Source: a virus
Length of the DNA stretch: 64,000 nucleotides
Reading direction: 5' to 3' (one strand)
Virus genome (UHGV): UHGV-1351569
Below the pieces are notes generated by a model. It was not told where the DNA came from. It searched no databases and was given only the letters and a program-made list of their open reading frames with translations. The position numbers were made by a program, and so were the translations under genes. Of the stretch, positions 39,615 to 46,103 are shown piece by piece; within the stretch, counting starts at the first letter, position 1, and every line of letters starts with the position of its first letter.

Positions 39615-40796
39615 ATGTCTATTGCAGATTTAAAATCCCGTTTGATTAAAGCTTCCACTTCTAAAATGACTGCTGAACTGACTACATCTAAATTCTTTAA
39701 TGAAAAGGATGTAATCCGTACAAAAATCCCAATGCTTAATATCGCTATTTCAGGTGCGATTGACGGTGGTATGCAGTCTGGTTTAACCATTTTTGCAGGT
39801 CCTTCTAAACACTTTAAATCAAATATGTCTTTGACTATGGTTGCGGCGTATTTGAACAAATATCCTGACGCGGTATGTCTATTCTATGATAGCGAATTTG
39901 GTATTACACCAGCTTATTTGCGATCCATGGGAGTTGACCCGGAACGAGTAATTCATACACCAATTCAGTCAGTTGAACAGCTGAAAATTGATATGGTGAA
40001 TCAGCTTGAAGCTATTGAGCGTGGTGAAAAAGTTATTGTATTCATCGACTCAATCGGTAATATGGCTTCTAAGAAAGAAACGGAAGATGCCTTGAATGAA
40101 AAATCTGTGGCAGATATGACTCGTGCTAAATCACTGAAGTCATTATTCCGTATTGTTACTCCTTATTTTAGTATTAAAAACATTCCATGTGTTGCGGTTA
40201 ACCATACAATTGAAACAATTGAAATGTTTAGTAAAACCGTGATGACAGGTGGTACAGGCGTAATGTATTCGGCTGATACTGTATTCATTATCGGTAAGCG
40301 CCAGATTAAAGATGGTTCTGATCTTCAGGGGTATCAATTTGTTCTAAATGTAGAAAAATCTCGTACCGTTAAAGAAAAAAGTAAATTCTTTATTGATGTT
40401 AAATTTGATGGTGGTATCGATCCTTATTCTGGATTGCTAGATATGGCTCTAGAATTAGGATTTGTAGTAAAACCTAAGAATGGTTGGTATGCTCGTGAAT
40501 TTCTTGATGAAGAAACCGGCGAGATGATTCGCGAAGAAAAATCTTGGCGTGCAAAAGATACCAACTGCACTACATTCTGGGGTCCTTTATTTAAGCATCA
40601 ACCATTCCGAGATGCTATTAAACGTGCTTATCAGTTAGGTGCTATTGATAGTAATGAAATTGTTGAAGCTGAAGTTGACGAATTGATTAACTCAAAGGTT
40701 GAAAAATTTAAATCTCCAGAAAGTAAAAGTAAATCAGCAGCTGATTTAGAAACTGACCTAGAACAGTTAAGTGATATGGAAGAATTTAATGAATAA
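39615..40796 (+). CDS. uvsX: recombinase UvsX (RecA-like)
   Basis: 393 aa; Walker A GPSKHFKS; very similar to recalled T4 UvsX. Confidence 0.95.
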   Translation: MSIADLKSRLIKASTSKMTAELTTSKFFNEKDVIRTKIPMLNIAISGAIDGGMQSGLTIFAGPSKHFKSNMSLTMVAAYLNKYPDAVCLFYDSEFGITPAYLRSMGVDPERVIHTPIQSVEQLKIDMVNQLEAIERGEKVIVFIDSIGNMASKKETEDALNEKSVADMTRAKSLKSLFRIVTPYFSIKNIPCVAVNHTIETIEMFSKTVMTGGTGVMYSADTVFIIGKRQIKDGSDLQGYQFVLNVEKSRTVKEKSKFFIDVKFDGGIDPYSGLLDMALELGFVVKPKNGWYAREFLDEETGEMIREEKSWRAKDTNCTTFWGPLFKHQPFRDAIKRAYQLGAIDSNEIVEAEVDELINSKVEKFKSPESKSKSAADLETDLEQLSDMEEFNE

Positions 40797-41133
40797 AGAT
40801 GATTTAGATTTAGATCTAGAAATTATCGATGAATCCCCCTCTTCGGAGGGGGAAGAAGAAAGAAAAGAACGTCTTTTTAATGAATCTCTTAAGATAATTA
40901 AATCTGCCATGGAAAATGTTATCCAGGAGATTGTCATTAAACTAGAAGATGGTTCTACACATATAGTGTATGTAACTAAACTGGATTGGGTTGATGGAAA
41001 GGTTGTAATGGACTTTGCTGTTCTTGACCAAGAAAGAAAAGCTGAGTTAGCTCCTCATGTAGAAAAATGTATTACAATGCAACTACAAGATGCATTTAAT
41101 AAAAGGTCAAAGAAAAAATTTAAATTCTTTTAA
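40789..41133 (+). CDS. 40: gp40 head-assembly protein
   Basis: 114 aa from ATG 40789 overlapping uvsX end; position as in T4. Confidence 0.75.
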   Translation: MNKDDLDLDLEIIDESPSSEGEEERKERLFNESLKIIKSAMENVIQEIVIKLEDGSTHIVYVTKLDWVDGKVVMDFAVLDQERKAELAPHVEKCITMQLQDAFNKRSKKKFKFF

Positions 41134-41142
41134 GGAGTAAGT

Positions 41143-42570
41143 GTGGTAGAAATTATTCTTTCTCATCTCATATTTGATCAAGCTTATTTTTCAAAAGTTT
41201 GGCCATATATGGATTCAGAATATTTTGAAAGTGGTCCAGCTAAAAATACATTCAAATTAATTAAATCTCATGTCAATGAGTATCATAGCGTTCCATCTAT
41301 TAATGCGTTAAATGTTGCATTAGAAAATAGTTCATTTACTGAAACAGAATATTCTGGTGTAAAAACACTTATTTCAAAACTGGCTGATTCTCCGGAAGAC
41401 CACAGCTGGTTAGTAAAAGAAACAGAAAAATATGTTCAGCAAAGGGCGATGTTTAATGCTACGTCTAAAATAATCGAAATTCAAACTAATGCTGAGCTTC
41501 CTCCGGAAAAACGAAATAAGAAAATGCCAGATGTAGGTGCTATTCCTGACATCATGCGCCAAGCATTATCAATTTCATTTGATAGCTACGTTGGTCATGA
41601 TTGGATGGATGACTACGAAGCACGTTGGCTATCTTATATGAATAAAGCTCGTAAGGTTCCATTTAAACTCAAAATTCTAAATAAAATTACTAAAGGCGGA
41701 GCTGAAACTGGAACACTGAACGTTTTAATGGCTGGTGTTAACGTTGGTAAGTCATTAGGATTGTGTTCATTGGCAGCAGATTATTTGCAGCTCGGACACA
41801 ATGTTCTTTACATTTCCATGGAAATGGCAGAAGAAGTCTGTGCTAAGCGTATTGACGCTAATATGCTCGATGTTTCTCTTGATGACATTGATGATGGGCA
41901 TATTTCTTACGCTGAATATAAAGGAAAAATGGAAAAATGGCGTGAGAAATCTACTCTCGGTCGTTTAATCGTTAAACAGTATCCTACTGGTGGAGCAGAC
42001 GCTAATACATTTCGTTCTCTTTTGAACGAATTGAAGCTCAAGAAGAATTTTGTTCCAACAATCATTATTGTTGACTATCTGGGTATTTGTAAATCTTGCC
42101 GCATCAGAGTTTATTCAGAAAATAGTTACACAACTGTTAAAGCTATCGCAGAAGAATTACGTGCTCTGGCTGTTGAAACCGAAACTGTTCTTTGGACCGC
42201 AGCACAGGTTGGTAAACAAGCTTGGGATTCTTCTGATGTTAACATGAGCGATATTGCAGAATCTGCCGGTCTTCCAGCAACAGCCGATTTTATGCTTGCG
42301 GTCATTGAAACCGAGGAGCTAGCAGCTGCTGAACAACAACTAATTAAGCAAATCAAATCACGATATGGCGATAAGAATAAGTGGAATAAGTTTTTGATGG
42401 GTGTTCAAAAAGGAAATCAGAAATGGGTAGAAATTGAACAAGATTCTACTCCAACTGAAGTGAACGAAGTAGCAGGTTCACAACAGATTCAGGCTGAGCA
42501 GAATCGCTATCAAAGAAATGAATCTACTCGAGCCCAGTTAGATGCTTTGGCGAATGAATTAAAATTTTAG
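41143..42570 (+). CDS. 41: replicative DNA helicase gp41
   Basis: 475 aa; Walker A GVNVGKS; matches recalled T4 gp41; GTG start. Confidence 0.95.
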   Translation: MVEIILSHLIFDQAYFSKVWPYMDSEYFESGPAKNTFKLIKSHVNEYHSVPSINALNVALENSSFTETEYSGVKTLISKLADSPEDHSWLVKETEKYVQQRAMFNATSKIIEIQTNAELPPEKRNKKMPDVGAIPDIMRQALSISFDSYVGHDWMDDYEARWLSYMNKARKVPFKLKILNKITKGGAETGTLNVLMAGVNVGKSLGLCSLAADYLQLGHNVLYISMEMAEEVCAKRIDANMLDVSLDDIDDGHISYAEYKGKMEKWREKSTLGRLIVKQYPTGGADANTFRSLLNELKLKKNFVPTIIIVDYLGICKSCRIRVYSENSYTTVKAIAEELRALAVETETVLWTAAQVGKQAWDSSDVNMSDIAESAGLPATADFMLAVIETEELAAAEQQLIKQIKSRYGDKNKWNKFLMGVQKGNQKWVEIEQDSTPTEVNEVAGSQQIQAEQNRYQRNESTRAQLDALANELKF

Positions 42571-42599
42571 TTTACAAGCTGACGAGACTATGGTATAGT
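42570..42599 (+). promoter_or_regulatory. T4-type early promoter
   Basis: GTTTAC, 18-bp spacer, TGgTATAGT. Confidence 0.5.
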
Positions 42600-42628: not shown

Positions 42629-42811
42629 ATGGAATTGGTAAAGGTAGTTTTTATGGGGTGGTTTAAGAATGAAAGCATGTTTACTAAAGAAACCACAATG
42701 ATGAAAGATGACGTTCAATGGGCTACTACTCAGTATGCTGAAGTTAATAAAGCGCTAGTTAAAGCTTTCATTGATGACAAAAAAGTATGCGAAGTGGATT
42801 GCCGAGGATAA
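42629..42811 (+). CDS. dmd: Dmd antitoxin (inhibitor of RnlA/LsoA)
   Basis: 60 aa; near-identical to recalled T4 Dmd. Confidence 0.85.
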   Translation: MELVKVVFMGWFKNESMFTKETTMMKDDVQWATTQYAEVNKALVKAFIDDKKVCEVDCRG

Positions 42812-42812
42812 T

Positions 42813-43070
42813 ATGCATATCGTTTTATTTAAACCTACTCCGTATAACGTCAGGAAAAATACTCAATTCAAAGCACTTATTGCAGATACGTGGGAATTGG
42901 TGTTAGATATTCCAGCAGAAGAAAGTCCTCCATTTGGTCGAGTGGAATTTATTAAGTTTGCTGTGCGCCCTACGAAGCGACAGATTCGCCAATGCAAAAG
43001 ATACTTTCGTAAAATCGTCAAGTTAGAGAAACAGTTTGTAACATGTGATTACGCAGAAGTTTTAAAATAA
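42813..43070 (+). CDS. hypothetical protein, 85 aa (T4 61.4 position)
   Basis: ATG at 42813 just after dmd stop; track start 42771 overlaps dmd. Confidence 0.5.
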   Translation: MHIVLFKPTPYNVRKNTQFKALIADTWELVLDIPAEESPPFGRVEFIKFAVRPTKRQIRQCKRYFRKIVKLEKQFVTCDYAEVLK

Positions 43071-43072
43071 CT

Positions 43073-43102
43073 GTTTACTTTTGTTGAAAATTGAGATACT
43101 AT
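43073..43102 (+). promoter_or_regulatory. T4-type early promoter
   Basis: GTTTAC, 18-bp spacer, TACTAT. Confidence 0.45.
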
Positions 43103-43128
43103 AAACATAAACTACTGAGGAGATTATC

Positions 43129-43422
43129 ATGAAAAAATTTATCTTTGCTGCAATTTTTGCTTTATCTTCTTGCGCTGCTCAGCCTGCTATGGCGGGTTAT
43201 GACAAAGATTTGTGTGAATGGTCTATGACCGCAGATCAGACTGAAGTTGAAACTCAAATTGAAGCGGATATTATGAATATCGTTGAGCGTGATCGTCCTG
43301 AAATGAAAGCTGAAGTGCAAAAACAGCTTAAGTCTGGTGGTGTAATGCAGTATAATTACGTTCTGTATTGTGATAAAAACTTCAATAATAAAAATATCAT
43401 CGCTGAAGTGGTAGGTGAGTAA
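43129..43422 (+). CDS. sp: Spackle periplasmic protein
   Basis: 97 aa with signal peptide; matches recalled T4 Sp. Confidence 0.8.
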   Translation: MKKFIFAAIFALSSCAAQPAMAGYDKDLCEWSMTADQTEVETQIEADIMNIVERDRPEMKAEVQKQLKSGGVMQYNYVLYCDKNFNNKNIIAEVVGE

Positions 43423-43434
43423 ATAGAGGTTAGT

Positions 43435-43791
43435 ATGTATAGTTCTGAATTTTCATATTTAAAAATGGAAAAAATTTCATACGATTTTATAGATGAAAAG
43501 GTTTATTATAGTTTCCATGAACCACGTTTTAACAGTGAAGTCGGTTTTATTGTAGTAAAAGATAATTTCATTTTAAAAATATATTCGGCATTAAAGGATT
43601 TTCACTACGAAAATATTAACCTAAAATTTGATAAAGAAAACGTTCATAATTGTGCAGTAACAATTACAGGAAATAAAGGTACATGTGTTATGCTATCTGA
43701 TGAAATTAATGATTTGTTAAATGATGTAGAAAAGGTTGCTGTTCCATCAATTGATGACCAAATTTTTAACGCTTTTATGAATAGAGGTTAA
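43435..43791 (+). CDS. adfA: 61.2-position protein (anti-DarT factor AdfA in T4-like phages)
   Basis: 118 aa at the 61.2 slot between sp and 61; identity rests on synteny and size. Confidence 0.55.
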   Translation: MYSSEFSYLKMEKISYDFIDEKVYYSFHEPRFNSEVGFIVVKDNFILKIYSALKDFHYENINLKFDKENVHNCAVTITGNKGTCVMLSDEINDLLNDVEKVAVPSIDDQIFNAFMNRG

Positions 43792-43792
43792 T

Positions 43793-43957
43793 ATGAAAAC
43801 ATATAAAGAATTTATTAAAGAAGATGTGGTAGCTGGAGATTCAGGTGGTAATCCTGAAAATATCTCTACTGGAACAACAACAGGTGCTGTAGTAAATAAA
43901 GGTCCTGAACAGATTCCTAAAAAGAAAAAAGAGGAATCTAAAGAAAAAGAAGAGTAA
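43793..43957 (+). CDS. small Lys/Glu-rich protein, 54 aa (T4 61.1 position; below track cutoff)
   Basis: Hand-translated; ATG 2 nt after upstream stop, stop 2 nt before gene 61 ATG. Confidence 0.45.
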   Translation: MKTYKEFIKEDVVAGDSGGNPENISTGTTTGAVVNKGPEQIPKKKKEESKEKEE

Positions 43958-43959
43958 AA

Positions 43960-44988
43960 ATGTCATCAATACCTTGGATTGATAATGAGTTTGCATACCG
44001 TGCATTGGCTCATTTACCTAAATTCACACAAGTAAATAATAGTTCAACTTTTAAATTGCGGTTTAGATGCCCTGTTTGTGGAGATTCAAAAACCGACCAA
44101 AATAAAGCTCGTGGATGGTATTACGGTGATAATAATGAAGGAAATATTCATTGTTATAACTGTAACTATCATGCACCAATCGGAATATATTTAAAGGAGT
44201 TTGAACCTGATTTATATCGTGAGTATATCTTTGAAATAAGAAAAGAAAAAGGTAAAAGTCGTCCAGTAGAAAAACCTAAAGAACTTCCTAAGCGACCTGA
44301 GAAGAAAATAATTAAATCTCTTCCGTCATGTGTTAGATTAGATAAACTGGCGGAAGACCATCCAATTATAAAATATGTAAAAGCTCGTTGTATTCCAAAG
44401 GATAAATGGAAATATCTTTGGTTTACAACCGAATGGCCTAAATTAGTTAATAGTATAGCACCGGGAACATACAAAAAGGAAATACCTGAGCCTCGTCTTG
44501 TTATTCCAATTTATAATGCTAATGGAAAAGCTGAGTCTTTTCAAGGCCGTGCGTTAAAGAAAGATGCTCCTCAAAAATATATCACCATCAAAGCTTATCC
44601 TGAGGCAACAAAAATCTATGGAGTCGAACGAGTCAAAGATGGTGATGTATATGTTCTAGAAGGACCTATAGATTCACTTTTTATTGAAAATGGTATAGCT
44701 ATTACAGGTGGTCAATTAGACCTAGAAATTGTTCCATTTAAAGATAGACGTGTATGGGTTTTAGATAATGAACCTCGTCATCCTGACACTATTAAACGAA
44801 TGACTAAATTAGTTGATGCAGGAGAAAGGGTTATGTTTTGGGATAAATCTCCCTGGAAATCAAAAGATGTTAATGATATGATTAGAAAGGAAGGTGCAAC
44901 CCCTGAACAAATTATGGAATATATGAAAAATAATATTGCCCAGGGGTTAATGGCTAAAATGCGGCTATCTAAATATGCCAAGATTTAA
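43960..44988 (+). CDS. 61: DNA primase gp61
   Basis: 342 aa; N-terminal zinc ribbon CPVCGDS...CYNCNYH; matches T4 gp61 size. Confidence 0.93.
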   Translation: MSSIPWIDNEFAYRALAHLPKFTQVNNSSTFKLRFRCPVCGDSKTDQNKARGWYYGDNNEGNIHCYNCNYHAPIGIYLKEFEPDLYREYIFEIRKEKGKSRPVEKPKELPKRPEKKIIKSLPSCVRLDKLAEDHPIIKYVKARCIPKDKWKYLWFTTEWPKLVNSIAPGTYKKEIPEPRLVIPIYNANGKAESFQGRALKKDAPQKYITIKAYPEATKIYGVERVKDGDVYVLEGPIDSLFIENGIAITGGQLDLEIVPFKDRRVWVLDNEPRHPDTIKRMTKLVDAGERVMFWDKSPWKSKDVNDMIRKEGATPEQIMEYMKNNIAQGLMAKMRLSKYAKI

Positions 44989-45185
44989 ATTAACCCAACC
45001 AAAGCAAATGCTAAATCTACGAATGTATCAAGAGTAACTACTGGAATATTAATACCATGCGCAATAGCTACTGGCGATAAAACAAAATTCCAAAGTAAAA
45101 TTCCTATCATAGCAGAAATAGTAAAAGCTATACGTTTTTTATTACCTTTGATGGCATTAACAAGTGCCATTAATTTTTGTACCAT
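44985..45185 (-). CDS. small hydrophobic protein, 66 aa, opposite strand
   Basis: Only ORF in the 61-56 gap; AAGGAGGA RBS 5 nt before ATG on minus strand; two hydrophobic segments. Confidence 0.55.
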   Translation of the reverse strand: MVQKLMALVNAIKGNKKRIAFTISAMIGILLWNFVLSPVAIAHGINIPVVTLDTFVDLAFALVGLI

Positions 45186-45196
45186 ATGTCCTCCTT

Positions 45197-45222
45197 ATTG
45201 CTTTATATATTTATTGTATAAT
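45197..45222 (+). promoter_or_regulatory. MotA-dependent middle promoter upstream of gene 56
   Basis: TGCTTTA 45199-45205, 11-bp spacer, TATAAT 45217-45222. Confidence 0.55.
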
Positions 45223-45256
45223 TAATCTACTAACCCATGAATTGAAAGGAAAAATA

Positions 45257-45775
45257 ATGGCTTACTTTAACGAATGTTCACAACTGATTGAAGGCGCTGA
45301 TAAAGCTCAAAATGAATATTGGGATATTCTCGGCGATGAAAAAGACCCACTACAGGTTATGCTTGATATGCAGAAATCTCTGCAGGTTCGTTTAGCTAAA
45401 GATAAACCTGAATATAACCGTCATCCTGATGATTTGGCTACCGCAGGTGAAGTTGTTGATTGGCTGCGCAATCAGAAAGATTATATTGACGATGAATTCC
45501 GTGAACTTCTGACTTCTCTTGGTGGTATGAGTAATGGTGAAAAAGACGCATCTGCTGTATGGAAACCTTGGAAGTCGCAGCATGGTGAACGTCGTGAAAC
45601 TCTGATTACTGATTTGTCTCCGCAAGACCAGTTAGAAATTAAATTTGAAATGATTGATATTCTTCATTTCGTTCTGAACATGTTCCAAGGTCTCGGTCTT
45701 ACGGCTGAAGAAATCTTTAAACTTTATTATCTAAAAAATGCTGAAAACTTCGCTCGTCAAGACAGAGGTTATTAA
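45257..45775 (+). CDS. 56: dCTPase/dUTPase gp56
   Basis: 172 aa from ATG 45257; close match to recalled T4 gp56. Confidence 0.9.
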   Translation: MAYFNECSQLIEGADKAQNEYWDILGDEKDPLQVMLDMQKSLQVRLAKDKPEYNRHPDDLATAGEVVDWLRNQKDYIDDEFRELLTSLGGMSNGEKDASAVWKPWKSQHGERRETLITDLSPQDQLEIKFEMIDILHFVLNMFQGLGLTAEEIFKLYYLKNAENFARQDRGY

Positions 45776-45819: not shown

Positions 45820-45827
45820 TATAAATA
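45820..45827 (+). promoter_or_regulatory. T4 late promoter core (TATAAATA) upstream of soc
   Basis: Exact TATAAATA about 30 nt upstream of soc ATG. Confidence 0.6.
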
Positions 45828-45857: not shown

Positions 45858-46103
45858 ATGGCTAGTACTCGCGGTTATGTTAATATCAAAACGTTTGAGC
45901 AGAAATTAGATGGAAATAAGAAAATTGAAGGAAAGGAAATTTCTGTAGCTTTCCCTCTTTATTCTGACGTTCACAAAATTTCTGGCGCTCATTACCAGAC
46001 ATTCCCTTCAGAAAAAGCAGCATATACTACTGTATATGAAGAAAATCAACGCGCTGCGTGGATTGCTGCAAACGAAGATTTGTGGAAAGTAACTGGTGAA
46101 TAA
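45858..46103 (+). CDS. soc: small outer capsid protein Soc
   Basis: 81 aa; near-identical to recalled T4 Soc. Confidence 0.93.
   Translation: MASTRGYVNIKTFEQKLDGNKKIEGKEISVAFPLYSDVHKISGAHYQTFPSEKAAYTTVYEENQRAAWIAANEDLWKVTGE

Follow-up and report, generated by a model that had tools for sequence, protein, structure and literature searches.

A T2-type anti-TA island between helicase gene 41 and primase gene 61, and its neighbour gp61.1, a putatively prohead-targeted protein

The interval between helicase gene 41 and primase gene 61 in the stretch of DNA analysed here (64,000 nucleotides, called the window below) is, judged by its gene content, order and identities, a T2-type version of the published T4 “anti-TA island”. 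The whole is probably best explained as such an island followed by gp61.1, a separate, non-island gene whose product is putatively targeted to the prohead. The cluster itself adds little to what is already known: the island was published in 2022, together with the suggestion that other genes of the region are candidates (Srikant et al. 2022, PMC9391042), TifA has likewise been published, and the arrangement is that of phage T2. The features of the locus are the following:

41143–42570, + strand: gene 41, replicative helicase (475 aa, 99.8% identity to T4 gp41); left border
42571–42599, + strand: early-promoter-like site 5' of dmd (TTTACA, 17-nt spacer, TATAGT, with TG)
42629–42811, + strand: dmd (61.5), antitoxin against RnlA/LsoA (Pfam Dmd match and T4/T2 identity)
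42813–43070, + strand: tifA (61.4), ToxN inhibitory factor A, the 85-aa ORF (T4 gp61.4 identity)
43073–43102, + strand: second early-promoter-like site, 5' of sp (GTTTAC T, 17-nt spacer, TACTAT)
43129–43422, + strand: sp (61.3), Spackle (Pfam T4_Spackle match and T4 identity)
43435–43791, + strand: 118-aa ORF at the 61.2 position, T2/RB32 type (matches the AdfA C-terminal half)
43793–43957, + strand: 54-aa ORF (gp61.1), entire
43793–43822, + strand: gp61.1 residues 1–10, MKTYKEFIKE (CTS-like, with an I-x-E prohead-protease motif)
43823–43906, + strand: gp61.1 residues 11–38 (homologous to the N-fist of mature gp23*)
43907–43957, + strand: gp61.1 residues 39–54, charged tail EQIPKKKKEESKEKEE, and stop codon
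43960–44988, + strand: gene 61, DNA primase (342 aa, 98.5% identity to T4 gp61); right border

The anti-TA island and its published members

A first-pass annotation of this DNA had drawn five ORFs between helicase 41 and primase 61; all five are confirmed on the + strand with the coordinates listed above, and so is their placement, the two flanking proteins being 99.8% and 98.5% identical to those of T4. The position between these genes and the gene order (dmd, tifA, sp, 61.2 slot, 61.1) are common to the T4 island (PMC9391042); Dmd, TifA, Sp and gp61.1 are 93–99% identical to their T4 counterparts, and an early-promoter-like site is found 5' of dmd here as well. The difference lies in the 61.2 slot, which holds the 208-aa adfA in T4 and a 118-aa gene in the window. 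Phage T2 (MH751506), for its part, has the same content in the same order (dmd, 61.4, sp, the 118-aa ORF, 61.1, 61 and a short minus-strand ORF), with identities of 60/60 for Dmd, 84/85 for TifA, 110/118 for the product of the 118-aa ORF and 52/54 for gp61.1; the T2 locus and the window show point differences only, and the window represents a different isolate. The top DNA matches to the window in the phage collection reach 96.8% identity, and the island DNA was matched in 503 phage records.

Two early-promoter-like sites would appear to serve the locus, a use that we infer from their consensus matches. The site at 42571–42599 obtained the top score in the consensus scan (10/12 matches), and its position agrees with that of the early promoter driving the dmd-tifA two-gene operon (PMC9391042); the site at 43073–43102, with 8/12 matches to the sigma-70 consensus, is under the scan threshold and was found by eye. 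A first unit would, on this basis, be composed of dmd and tifA, and a second of sp, the 118-aa ORF, 61.1 and 61. T4 time-course data class both the transcripts and the proteins of dmd, 61.4, sp and 61.2 as early.

The identities proposed earlier for dmd and Spackle are borne out. Dmd (PF17587) scores 153.5 bits in Pfam over residues 1–60 of 60 and is identical to the T4 protein at 59/60 positions (98.3%); Spackle (PF25676, T4_Spackle) scores 153.3 bits over its full length, is identical to the T4 protein at 94/97 positions (96.9%), and has a signal-peptide-like N-terminus, MKKFIFAAIFALSSCAAQPAMA, which is hydrophobic and ends in AMA. Spackle acts in the periplasm to keep out superinfecting phage and is no counter-measure to host immunity. 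The description of the locus as a counter-defence cluster can be kept for Dmd and TifA, which would both act directly against toxin RNases of the host (Dmd blocking RnlA and LsoA), and has to be given up for Spackle, a protein of inter-phage superinfection exclusion; the 54-aa ORF is a non-island gene.

The 85-aa ORF was wrongly termed uncharacterised: by its identity to T4 gp61.4 (84/85 residues, 98.8%, the single residue change being I83V), it is TifA, the published ToxN inhibitor. It scores 72.7 bits against Pfam DUF7279 / PF23945 (cut-off 24.5), and its pairwise dN/dS is 0.03–0.10. In the program-made ORF list, its start is a TTG (42771); the ATG at 42813, 1 nt after the dmd stop codon, yields the 85 aa of T4 gp61.4. 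This protein was renamed TifA as a ToxN inhibitor (PMC9391042), and its mechanism was described as one of RNA binding: TifA binds RNA and ToxN and traps the latter as an inactive ribonucleoprotein complex, with residues P53, T54, K55, R56, and R59 of a basic C-terminal helix required for both RNA binding and ToxN neutralisation (PMC10853763). Direct reading of the TifA encoded in the window finds all five of them, as well as F41; Phe at position 41 is the weaker, T4-type allele. ToxN is neutralised by the TifA proteins of T2, T4 and T6, which are mutually >96% identical; for the protein encoded here, with its Phe41, weak inhibition of the T4 kind would be expected. The earlier proposal that the 85-aa ORF inhibits host immunity was, thus, right, though already established (PMC9391042, PMC10853763).

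The 118-aa gene in the 61.2 slot

The protein at the 61.2 position had been taken for the anti-DarT protein AdfA. It is not the AdfA orthologue; on sequence grounds, it is a half-length paralogue of the AdfA C-terminal half, encoded by a separate gene and not by an allele of adfA. AdfA is a two-part protein of about 208–211 aa (208 aa in T4), with which the 118-aa ORF has in common the residues homologous to 109–208 of T4 AdfA (38% identity over 95 aa), an identical 14-residue C-terminus and the genomic slot; the AdfA N-terminal domain is lacking, and residues 1–21 of the ORF are unrelated to AdfA. In keeping with this, the Pfam AdfA profile (PF23813) is matched with 34.5 bits at positions 113–211 of 211 only, while PHROG 4122 is matched over the full length. 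Cys73 of the 118-aa ORF stands opposite T4 His165 (His164 as numbered in RB69), in a register that is uncertain at 38% identity; His164 is required for DarT1 binding and neutralisation (PMC11257639).

Searches for the 118-aa ORF matched 337 phage records, T2, RB32, and RB51 among them. The gene is alone in the 61.2 slot in the T2 locus, and it is in tandem with a 208-aa adfA (202/208 residues identical to T4) in slur03; because it co-occurs there with a full adfA, the 118-aa ORF is not a replacement allele. We also rejected a truncated adfA pseudogene, as the ORF is intact, evolves under purifying selection (pairwise dN/dS 0.07–0.19), forms, across 337 genomes, a family of its own and is found alongside adfA.

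A functional short AdfA, neutralising some DarT by direct binding, would make the anti-DarT label effectively right, and we regard this as unlikely. The Pfam AdfA score does exceed the curated cut-off (34.5 vs 27 bits), and PF23813 had already been assigned by the database to close relatives of the ORF, but the 110 N-terminal residues of AdfA are missing; the half that is kept is the one in which His164, decisive for DarT1 binding, falls, but a Cys takes its place. Purifying selection on the ORF and the view that AdfA variants are tuned to different DarT homologues (PMC11257639) would suit such a protein, whereas T2, a carrier of the 118-aa gene, was described as having no adfA homologue, was treated by the authors of the AdfA work as adfA-less and resists DarTG1 via AdfN (PMC11257639). 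AlphaFold2 modelled the 118-aa ORF poorly (mean pLDDT 56); structurally, a DarT-binding role is, therefore, neither supported nor refuted, and this poor query model matched in BFVD solely uncharacterised phage proteins, with high rmsd. We retain the reading as a separate gene: among T-even phages, the 61.2 slot is occupied by two different genes, and annotations and tallies of anti-DarT AdfA should leave the short one out.

Distribution and conservation of gp61.1

The 54-aa ORF, gp61.1, had been proposed as a candidate inhibitor of host immunity by association with its neighbours. The association does not hold: as seen from homology searches and synteny, gp61.1 belongs to a family present at the 41/61 junction of nearly every non-cyanobacterial T4-like phage and is no island gene. 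Homologues were found by tblastn in 1428 phage records from several genera, and an exhaustive representative search gave 26 clusters of relatives among 1.84 billion representative proteins; both searches were needed to see the family, a word-indexed protein search returning merely 9 close relatives of gp61.1 (and 5 relatives of the 118-aa ORF). The presence/absence comparison across T4-like phages that had been suggested as a check does not give the picture of a patchy gene: gp61.1 is in 1428 records, the 118-aa ORF in 337 and the island DNA in 503, and the per-genus record counts of gp61.1 stand at about 1:1 with those of capsid gene 23. The gene adjoins that of the primase in T4, T2, slur03, VR7, Roth34, IME13, QD01, Melin, ZPAH1, and one metagenomic contig, and it lies two genes away from it in ER45; in distant T4-like phages, it is kept immediately 5' of the primase gene or no more than two genes from it, in some of them without any of dmd, tifA, sp or adfA. 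Guilt by association, thus, fails for gp61.1, because its family adjoins the primase across the Straboviridae, island-less genomes included. The island genes would have been inserted 5' of gp61.1.

The absence of a known function for the 54-aa ORF, on the other hand, was rightly noted: in the literature searched, “gp61.1” is found in two annotation tables only. A Pfam search with E up to 1 gave no match, and in PHROGs, gp61.1 falls into function-unknown families only. The composition had been described as Lys/Glu-rich, which is true of the last 13 residues and not of the remainder; all family members have a Lys/Arg-rich tail after the motif. Three architectures can be distinguished, the motif being kept inside proteins of 150–250 aa in other lineages. 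In the form of ~250 aa, a second CTS-like segment comes after the Lys tail, and neither Pfam nor PHROGs matched the C-terminal domain. For a long-form homologue, AlphaFold2 predicts a helical core with confidence over residues 10–70, forming a small N-domain, and a disordered tail; a Foldseek search of the long-form N-terminal domain against solved structures gave no match (top E 6).

Given its very short length, its low-complexity tail and the failure to detect its protein in the T4 time-course proteome, one may ask whether the 54-aa ORF is non-functional as a protein, that is, a chance ORF or a mere leader for gene 61. The probability of this is very small. The 85-aa, 118-aa and 54-aa ORFs are each conserved across hundreds of phage genomes; for gp61.1, the homologues in the 1428 genomes and in the 26 clusters are recognised at the protein level, the motif persists within the longer proteins, and VR7 and T4 differ by a dN of 0.08 with saturated synonymous sites. 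Pairwise dN/dS values are 0–0.5, with few differences. Conservation and dN/dS effectively refute a chance ORF.

The setting of the gene could also speak for a replication accessory, or for an ORF coupling translation into gene 61, the likeness to gp23 described below being an evolutionary relic. Its place between the helicase and primase genes is invariant across the Straboviridae; in the window, 2 nt separate its stop codon from the gene 61 ATG, and its Lys-rich tail might serve for nucleic-acid binding. We nevertheless consider this explanation quite improbable. The T4 replisome has been reconstituted in vitro without gp61.1. The gap between the gp61.1 gene and the primase is 40–80 nt in QD01, Melin and ZPAH1, and thus the tight coupling is not conserved, to which the two intervening genes of ER45 can be added. 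A coupling role would, moreover, leave the conserved capsid-like motif and the Glu site of gp61.1 unexplained, and the same gene cluster has a head gene, gene 40, embedded in it.

gp61.1, the internal proteins and the N-terminus of gp23

The first ten residues of gp61.1, MKTYKEFIKE, are to be compared with MKTYQEFIAE in the T4 internal proteins IPII and IPIII and with MKTFKEF in IPI. In the published CTS, targeting depends on residues 4 and 7 and processing on residues 8 and 10, with L/I-x-E as the gp21 cleavage motif; all four determinants of the internal proteins are identical in gp61.1 (Y4, F7, I8, and E10), and I8-K9-E10 fits the cleavage motif. A degenerate CTS DNA pattern has a single occurrence in the 64-kb window, where 0.02 chance matches are expected. 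Differences from the internal proteins are that gp61.1 has no folded cargo, the 44-residue remainder being predicted as disordered in a homologue, and that its gene is in the replication cluster and not at the IP loci. The residue following the cut is Ala in IPII, IPIII and gp23, and would be Asp in gp61.1. In T4 gp61.1, the sequence from residue 11 (Asp11) reads DMVAGD..., and the tryptic peptide is EDMVAGDSGGNPENISIGTTSGAVVNK.

The segment that follows is related to the major capsid protein. BLASTP aligned gp61.1 residues 2–38 with gp23 residues 57–93 (15/37 identical, pairwise E = 3e-8); a profile of the gp61.1 family searched against all PDB sequences placed T4 gp23 on top (E = 4.8e-10, the first unrelated entry having E = 0.09); and hhalign of the family against gp23 gave a probability of 97.4% (E = 1.3e-11). 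Homology is confined to gp23 residues 50–101, and even with the long forms, hhalign aligned the 40-residue motif alone, with no extension into the gp23 delta-domain. The ~40 homologous residues include the cleavage Glu (a Glu of gp61.1 aligns with the gp23 maturation site E65, of the E65/A66 pair), the GD.G...NI..G.T.GAV motif and the GP that follows, and in each of the three gp61.1 architectures, most members have a hydrophobic-x-Glu before the motif. In gp23, this region comprises the N-fist, the 25-residue segment that opens mature gp23* (PMC9958956). gp61.1 differs from gp23 in having neither the HK97-fold body nor the delta-domain, and in having a Lys-rich tail in place of the N-arm. The same alignment suggests that the IP targeting sequence may itself derive from the segment just before the gp23 cleavage site.

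A true capsid protein was considered and rejected, since 54 aa leave no room for the HK97-fold body (A/P domains and E-loop, about 450 residues in gp23); the “major capsid protein” labels that several gp61.1 homologues bear in GenBank and UniRef are misannotations. When gp61.1 was examined for co-variation with the gp23 N-fist of its own phage, 2/5 pairs were top on the diagonal, both segments being too conserved for the comparison to discriminate.

The members of the gp61.1 family share, from N- to C-terminus, a hydrophobic-x-Glu site of gp21 type, a ~28-residue N-fist homologue and a Lys-rich tail. We tentatively infer, with less than even confidence, that gp61.1 would be carried into the prohead core, that gp21 would cut it after Glu10, and that the resulting 44-residue peptide, made of the N-fist and the basic tail, would act in or on the capsid or be co-injected with DNA. 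Entry into the prohead would rely on the IP-type targeting sequence in the short forms and on the N-terminal domain in the long ones, with gp21 then releasing the peptide; the latter may fill N-fist sites of the shell, for example beside the gp24 vertices, which are N-fist-less, or bind the packaged DNA and be injected. In T4 time-course data, the gp61.1 transcript is early and was detected; the protein was undetected in the whole-cell proteome, which counts against a head role. The late promoter consensus TATAAATA is absent near 61.1, its nearest copy being 5' of soc. The ipII and ipIII transcripts are, however, classed as early too in the same data, and head gene 40 is located on the opposite side of gene 41, within the same cluster; an early gene at this locus can, therefore, encode a head protein. 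The literature searched holds no report of gp61.1 in virions. Two further observations count against a head protein: the Asp after the predicted cut, and the helicase–primase position, which could point to replication.

The CTS of IP type also makes a counter-defence role possible for gp61.1, by an argument other than guilt by association. IPI* is an injected inhibitor of a restriction enzyme. gp61.1 could, likewise, be an injected IP-like inhibitor; or it could be a cytoplasmic early mimic or decoy of the capsid N-terminus, blunting a host sensor of this segment or of prohead-protease activity. Several points are consistent with such a factor: CTS-bearing internal proteins have been described in the literature as diverse injected defence proteins, host systems sensing gp21 protease activity exist, the gp61.1 transcript is early and its product mimics a conserved segment of the capsid protein. 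Its gene stands, furthermore, at the edge of an island in which the remaining genes have been put forward as candidates (PMC9391042), but it occupies the same locus in island-less phages, and its near-universal occurrence, parallel to that of the capsid gene, sets it apart from patchy accessory genes such as those counted above. The core motif is strongly conserved, whereas anti-defence proteins usually diversify. We, thus, hold a counter-defence factor to be rather unlikely, and put the prohead-targeted peptide before it.

gp61.1 belongs to the 100 or so T4 genes that have no assigned function, and it combines the exact CTS determinants with a copy of the N-fist in a gene as widespread as the capsid gene itself. 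It may perhaps, and we say so with reserve, be an overlooked head-morphogenesis component of the Straboviridae as a whole, in the form of a free-standing copy of the gp23 maturation site and N-fist to which a basic tail is joined. If true, this would add a conserved component to the best-studied phage head.

The interval between helicase 41 and primase 61

The genome is T4-like (Tequatrovirus) and lies in the orientation opposite to that of the T4 reference. ORF calls on the window bore out the five ORFs, with their coordinates, that the first-pass annotation had proposed between helicase 41 and primase 61; they are closely spaced and all on the + strand.

41143-42570, + strand: helicase 41, left border; 99.8% identical to T4
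42571-42599, upstream of dmd: early-promoter-like site, strong (consensus scan)
42629-42811, + strand: dmd, 60 aa; 98.3% identical to T4 Dmd
42813-43070, + strand: 85-aa ORF (gp61.4, TifA), counted from ATG; 98.8% identical to T4
43073-43102, upstream of sp: early-promoter-like site, weaker (read by eye)
43129-43422, + strand: sp (Spackle), 97 aa; 96.9% identical to T4
43435-43791, + strand: 118-aa ORF at the 61.2 position; aligns with the C-terminal half of T4 gp61.2 (AdfA, 208 aa), 38% identical across 95 residues
43793-43957, + strand: 54-aa ORF (gp61.1); 92.6% identical to T4 gp61.1
43960-44988, + strand: primase 61, right border; 98.5% identical to T4

The locus is the same, gene for gene, in phage T2, and 503 phage records match the 1.39-kb stretch at 90-99% DNA identity (best match 96.8%). 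No terminator-like sites between the genes were found in a scan of the locus. Beyond the primase, T4 carries the dam methyltransferase gene before gene 56, whereas the window has no dam there (44985-45775).

44985-45185, - strand: hydrophobic ORF, 66 aa, no Pfam match; sits where T4 has dam
45148-45173: terminator-like hairpin, within the region of the 66-aa ORF
45820-45827: exact T4 late-promoter consensus, TATAAATA, some 30 nt ahead of soc (45858-46103)

The short minus-strand ORF, also present in T2, is followed by a dCTPase-like gene 56 and then by soc. Only four exact late-promoter sequences occur in the window, and the one before soc fits the view that soc is a late gene placed among early ones.

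TifA and the ORF at the 61.2 position

The 85-aa ORF had been described as of unknown function; on sequence identity, however, it is TifA. Gene 61.4 of T4 received the name tifA in 2022, when T4 was found to escape toxIN, a type III toxin-antitoxin system, by amplification of the dmd-tifA operon, ToxN being inhibited by TifA (PMC9391042). In the mechanism described in 2023, TifA binds RNA and ToxN, trapping ToxN in an inactive ribonucleoprotein complex, with residues P53, T54, K55, R56, and R59 required (PMC10853763). Potency is tuned by position 41, Phe (as in T4) being weaker than Ser or His, and ToxN is neutralised by each of the TifA proteins of T2, T4, and T6, which share more than 96% identity. 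The window protein differs from that of T4 only by I83V; it keeps all five RNA-binding residues and has Phe at position 41. The proposal that this ORF counters host immunity is thus right but already known, since the region was named a possible “anti-TA island” in 2022 and its other genes were called attractive anti-toxin candidates (PMC9391042).

The label AdfA for the 118-aa ORF does not hold, and its sequence identifies it as a distinct relative of AdfA. The Pfam AdfA model scores 34.5 bits (cut-off 27) but matches at profile positions 113-211 of 211 only, and the ORF forms its own full-length PHROG family, with members in 337 phage records, T2, RB32, and RB51 among them. His164, needed by AdfA for DarT1 binding (PMC11257639), is aligned with Cys73. 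In the slur03 locus (L007 1152-2136), set against window 43423-43791, a 208-aa adfA (202/208 residues identical to T4) and the 118-aa gene stand in tandem between sp and 61.1, which makes the two paralogues rather than alleles; T4 has adfA alone in this slot, T2 and the window the 118-aa gene alone. The group that first described AdfA reports adfA in only 13 of 17 Tevenvirinae and its natural absence from T2 (PMC11257639). Both proteins end, just before 61.1, with the same 14 residues, SIDDQIFNAFMNRG; we infer that recombination at this shared end may add or remove one gene or the other. The 118-aa ORF is under purifying selection (dN/dS 0.07-0.19); its predicted structure model was of too poor quality for use.

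Distribution of gp61.1

The 54-aa ORF had been proposed as an immunity inhibitor from its neighbours. Its homologues were found by tblastn in 1428 phage records, with hosts including Escherichia, Klebsiella, Acinetobacter, Aeromonas, Vibrio, and Stenotrophomonas, and counts by genus word are nearly equal to those of the gp23 N-terminal segment.

Phage records by genus word: gp61.1, then gp23 N-terminal segment
Escherichia: 611, 608
Klebsiella: 276, 282
Shigella: 82, 83
Acinetobacter: 65, 69
Enterobacter: 56, 55

Cyanophage records fall outside the main gp61.1 genera, and their gp23 matches are weak and mostly past the N-fist, the first segment of the mature capsid protein gp23*. In all loci inspected, the homologue lies at the gene 41/61 junction: directly before the primase in T4, T2, slur03, VR7, Roth34, IME13, Vibrio phage QD01, Acinetobacter phage Melin, Aeromonas phage ZPAH1, and a 128-kb metagenomic T4-like contig, and two genes ahead of it in Klebsiella phage ER45. 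A replication or translational-coupling role is one reading of gp61.1, which we consider quite improbable. In VR7 (Gaprivervirus; L015 194-581), the genes run 61.2, 61.4, ORF036c (an additional small ORF), 61.1, and 61; island order and content are thus rearranged between genera, with 61.1 still adjoining the primase.

Of these loci, those of IME13, ZPAH1, and the metagenomic contig run helicase, gp61.1 homologue, primase, and dmd, tifA, sp, and adfA are all missing from them; evidently 61.1 was already in place when the island genes entered upstream of it. gp61.1 is therefore not an island gene; its spread is core-like, unlike that of patchy accessory anti-defence genes, which removes the argument from association. 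That gp61.1 is nevertheless an injected or decoy-type counter-defence factor seems to us unlikely.

gp61.1 and the capsid protein gp23

Searched exhaustively, 1.84 billion representative proteins yielded 26 gp61.1 clusters, which show three architectures. Short forms (50-70 aa) often start with MKTF.EF, long forms (123-165 aa) have an N-terminal domain of about 100 residues, and forms of about 250 aa (P0102-P0109; L018 5001-5720, which in the metagenomic contig is flanked by helicase 41 and a gene of primase size) carry, after the Lys tail, a second capsid-targeting-like segment of type M.EV..F..F(I/V)E, e.g., MSEVVDFKTFIAE, and a further C-terminal domain of about 70 residues without a Pfam or PHROG match. 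Common to all are hydrophobic-x-Glu, (M/V)VAGDSGG.PENIASG.TSGAV.NKGP, and a Lys/Arg run.

Three independent sequence tests support homology to the gp23 N-terminal segment: gp61.1 residues 2-38 align with gp23 residues 57-93 (15/37 identical; BLASTP pairwise E = 3e-8); the family profile, run against all 177,635 distinct PDB sequences, ranked T4 gp23 first (residues 50-101, E = 4.8e-10; next unrelated E = 0.09); and hhalign of the long forms with five gp23 N-termini gave 97.4% probability (E = 1.3e-11, 40 columns). The matched segment comprises the maturation cleavage site and the N-fist, the Glu preceding the gp61.1 motif aligning with gp23 Glu65. The prohead protease gp21 removes the first 65 residues of gp23, and the 25-residue N-fist, missing from gp24*, contacts four neighbouring subunits once the capsid has expanded (PMC9958956).

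In ER45, gp23 (L013 4298-5866) reads TKIASG...TNIGP, other sampled gp23 proteins having NIAAG, and its gp61.1 homologue (L017 244-732) reads EKIASG...TNIGP; the likeness could reflect gene conversion or co-variation of the two genes, though a single case among five phages does not amount to evidence. When gp61.1 was compared with the gp23 N-fist of each of five phages, the phage's own pair scored highest in two.

Many GenBank/UniRef homologues are named “major capsid protein” or “major capsid domain-containing protein” (the Melin record cites IPR010762), because automatic pipelines pick up the 40-residue resemblance; lacking the capsid-fold body, they are not major capsid proteins. “DNA primase-helicase subunit” and “methyltransferase” are misannotations too (examples: L005 3165-3641, L016 601-765; homologues P0002, P0037, P0051, P0060, P0089).

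The window gp61.1 starts with MKTYKEFIKE, T4 IPII and IPIII with MKTYQEFIAE, and T4 IPI and T4 gp61.1 share MKTFKEF. The 10 N-terminal residues of IPIII are enough to have it packaged into the head; in this capsid-targeting sequence (CTS), targeting depends on residues 4 and 7 and processing on residues 8 and 10, and gp21 cleaves after L/I-x-E (PMC9026906). The window gp61.1 matches at all four positions, and the 64-kb window has a single copy of the CTS-like DNA pattern vs. 0.02 expected.

Our preferred, still tentative, reading is that gp61.1 is a prohead-targeted peptide: it would enter the prohead core, and gp21 would cleave it after Glu10 to release a 44-residue peptide made of the N-fist-like segment and basic tail, with the N-terminal domain of long forms acting as a propeptide. 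Counting against it, the residue after the predicted cut is Asp, not Ala, no late promoter was found near 61.1, the protein went undetected in the T4 time-course proteome although its transcript was seen, and the literature searched contained no report of gp61.1 in virions. Two objections lose force on a closer look: T4 ipII and ipIII transcripts are likewise classed early, and a head-morphogenesis gene is conserved inside the replication cluster next to the 61.1 locus. This is gene 40, the head vertex assembly chaperone (40771-41133; 99.9 bits to Pfam Phage_head_chap), which immediately precedes helicase 41 (uvsX, 40, 41 also in ZPAH1 and the metagenomic contig). We found no paper, in the literature searched, on the gp23 resemblance or any gp61.1 function. 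The analysis moves gp61.1 from “hypothetical” to a specific, testable candidate head peptide.
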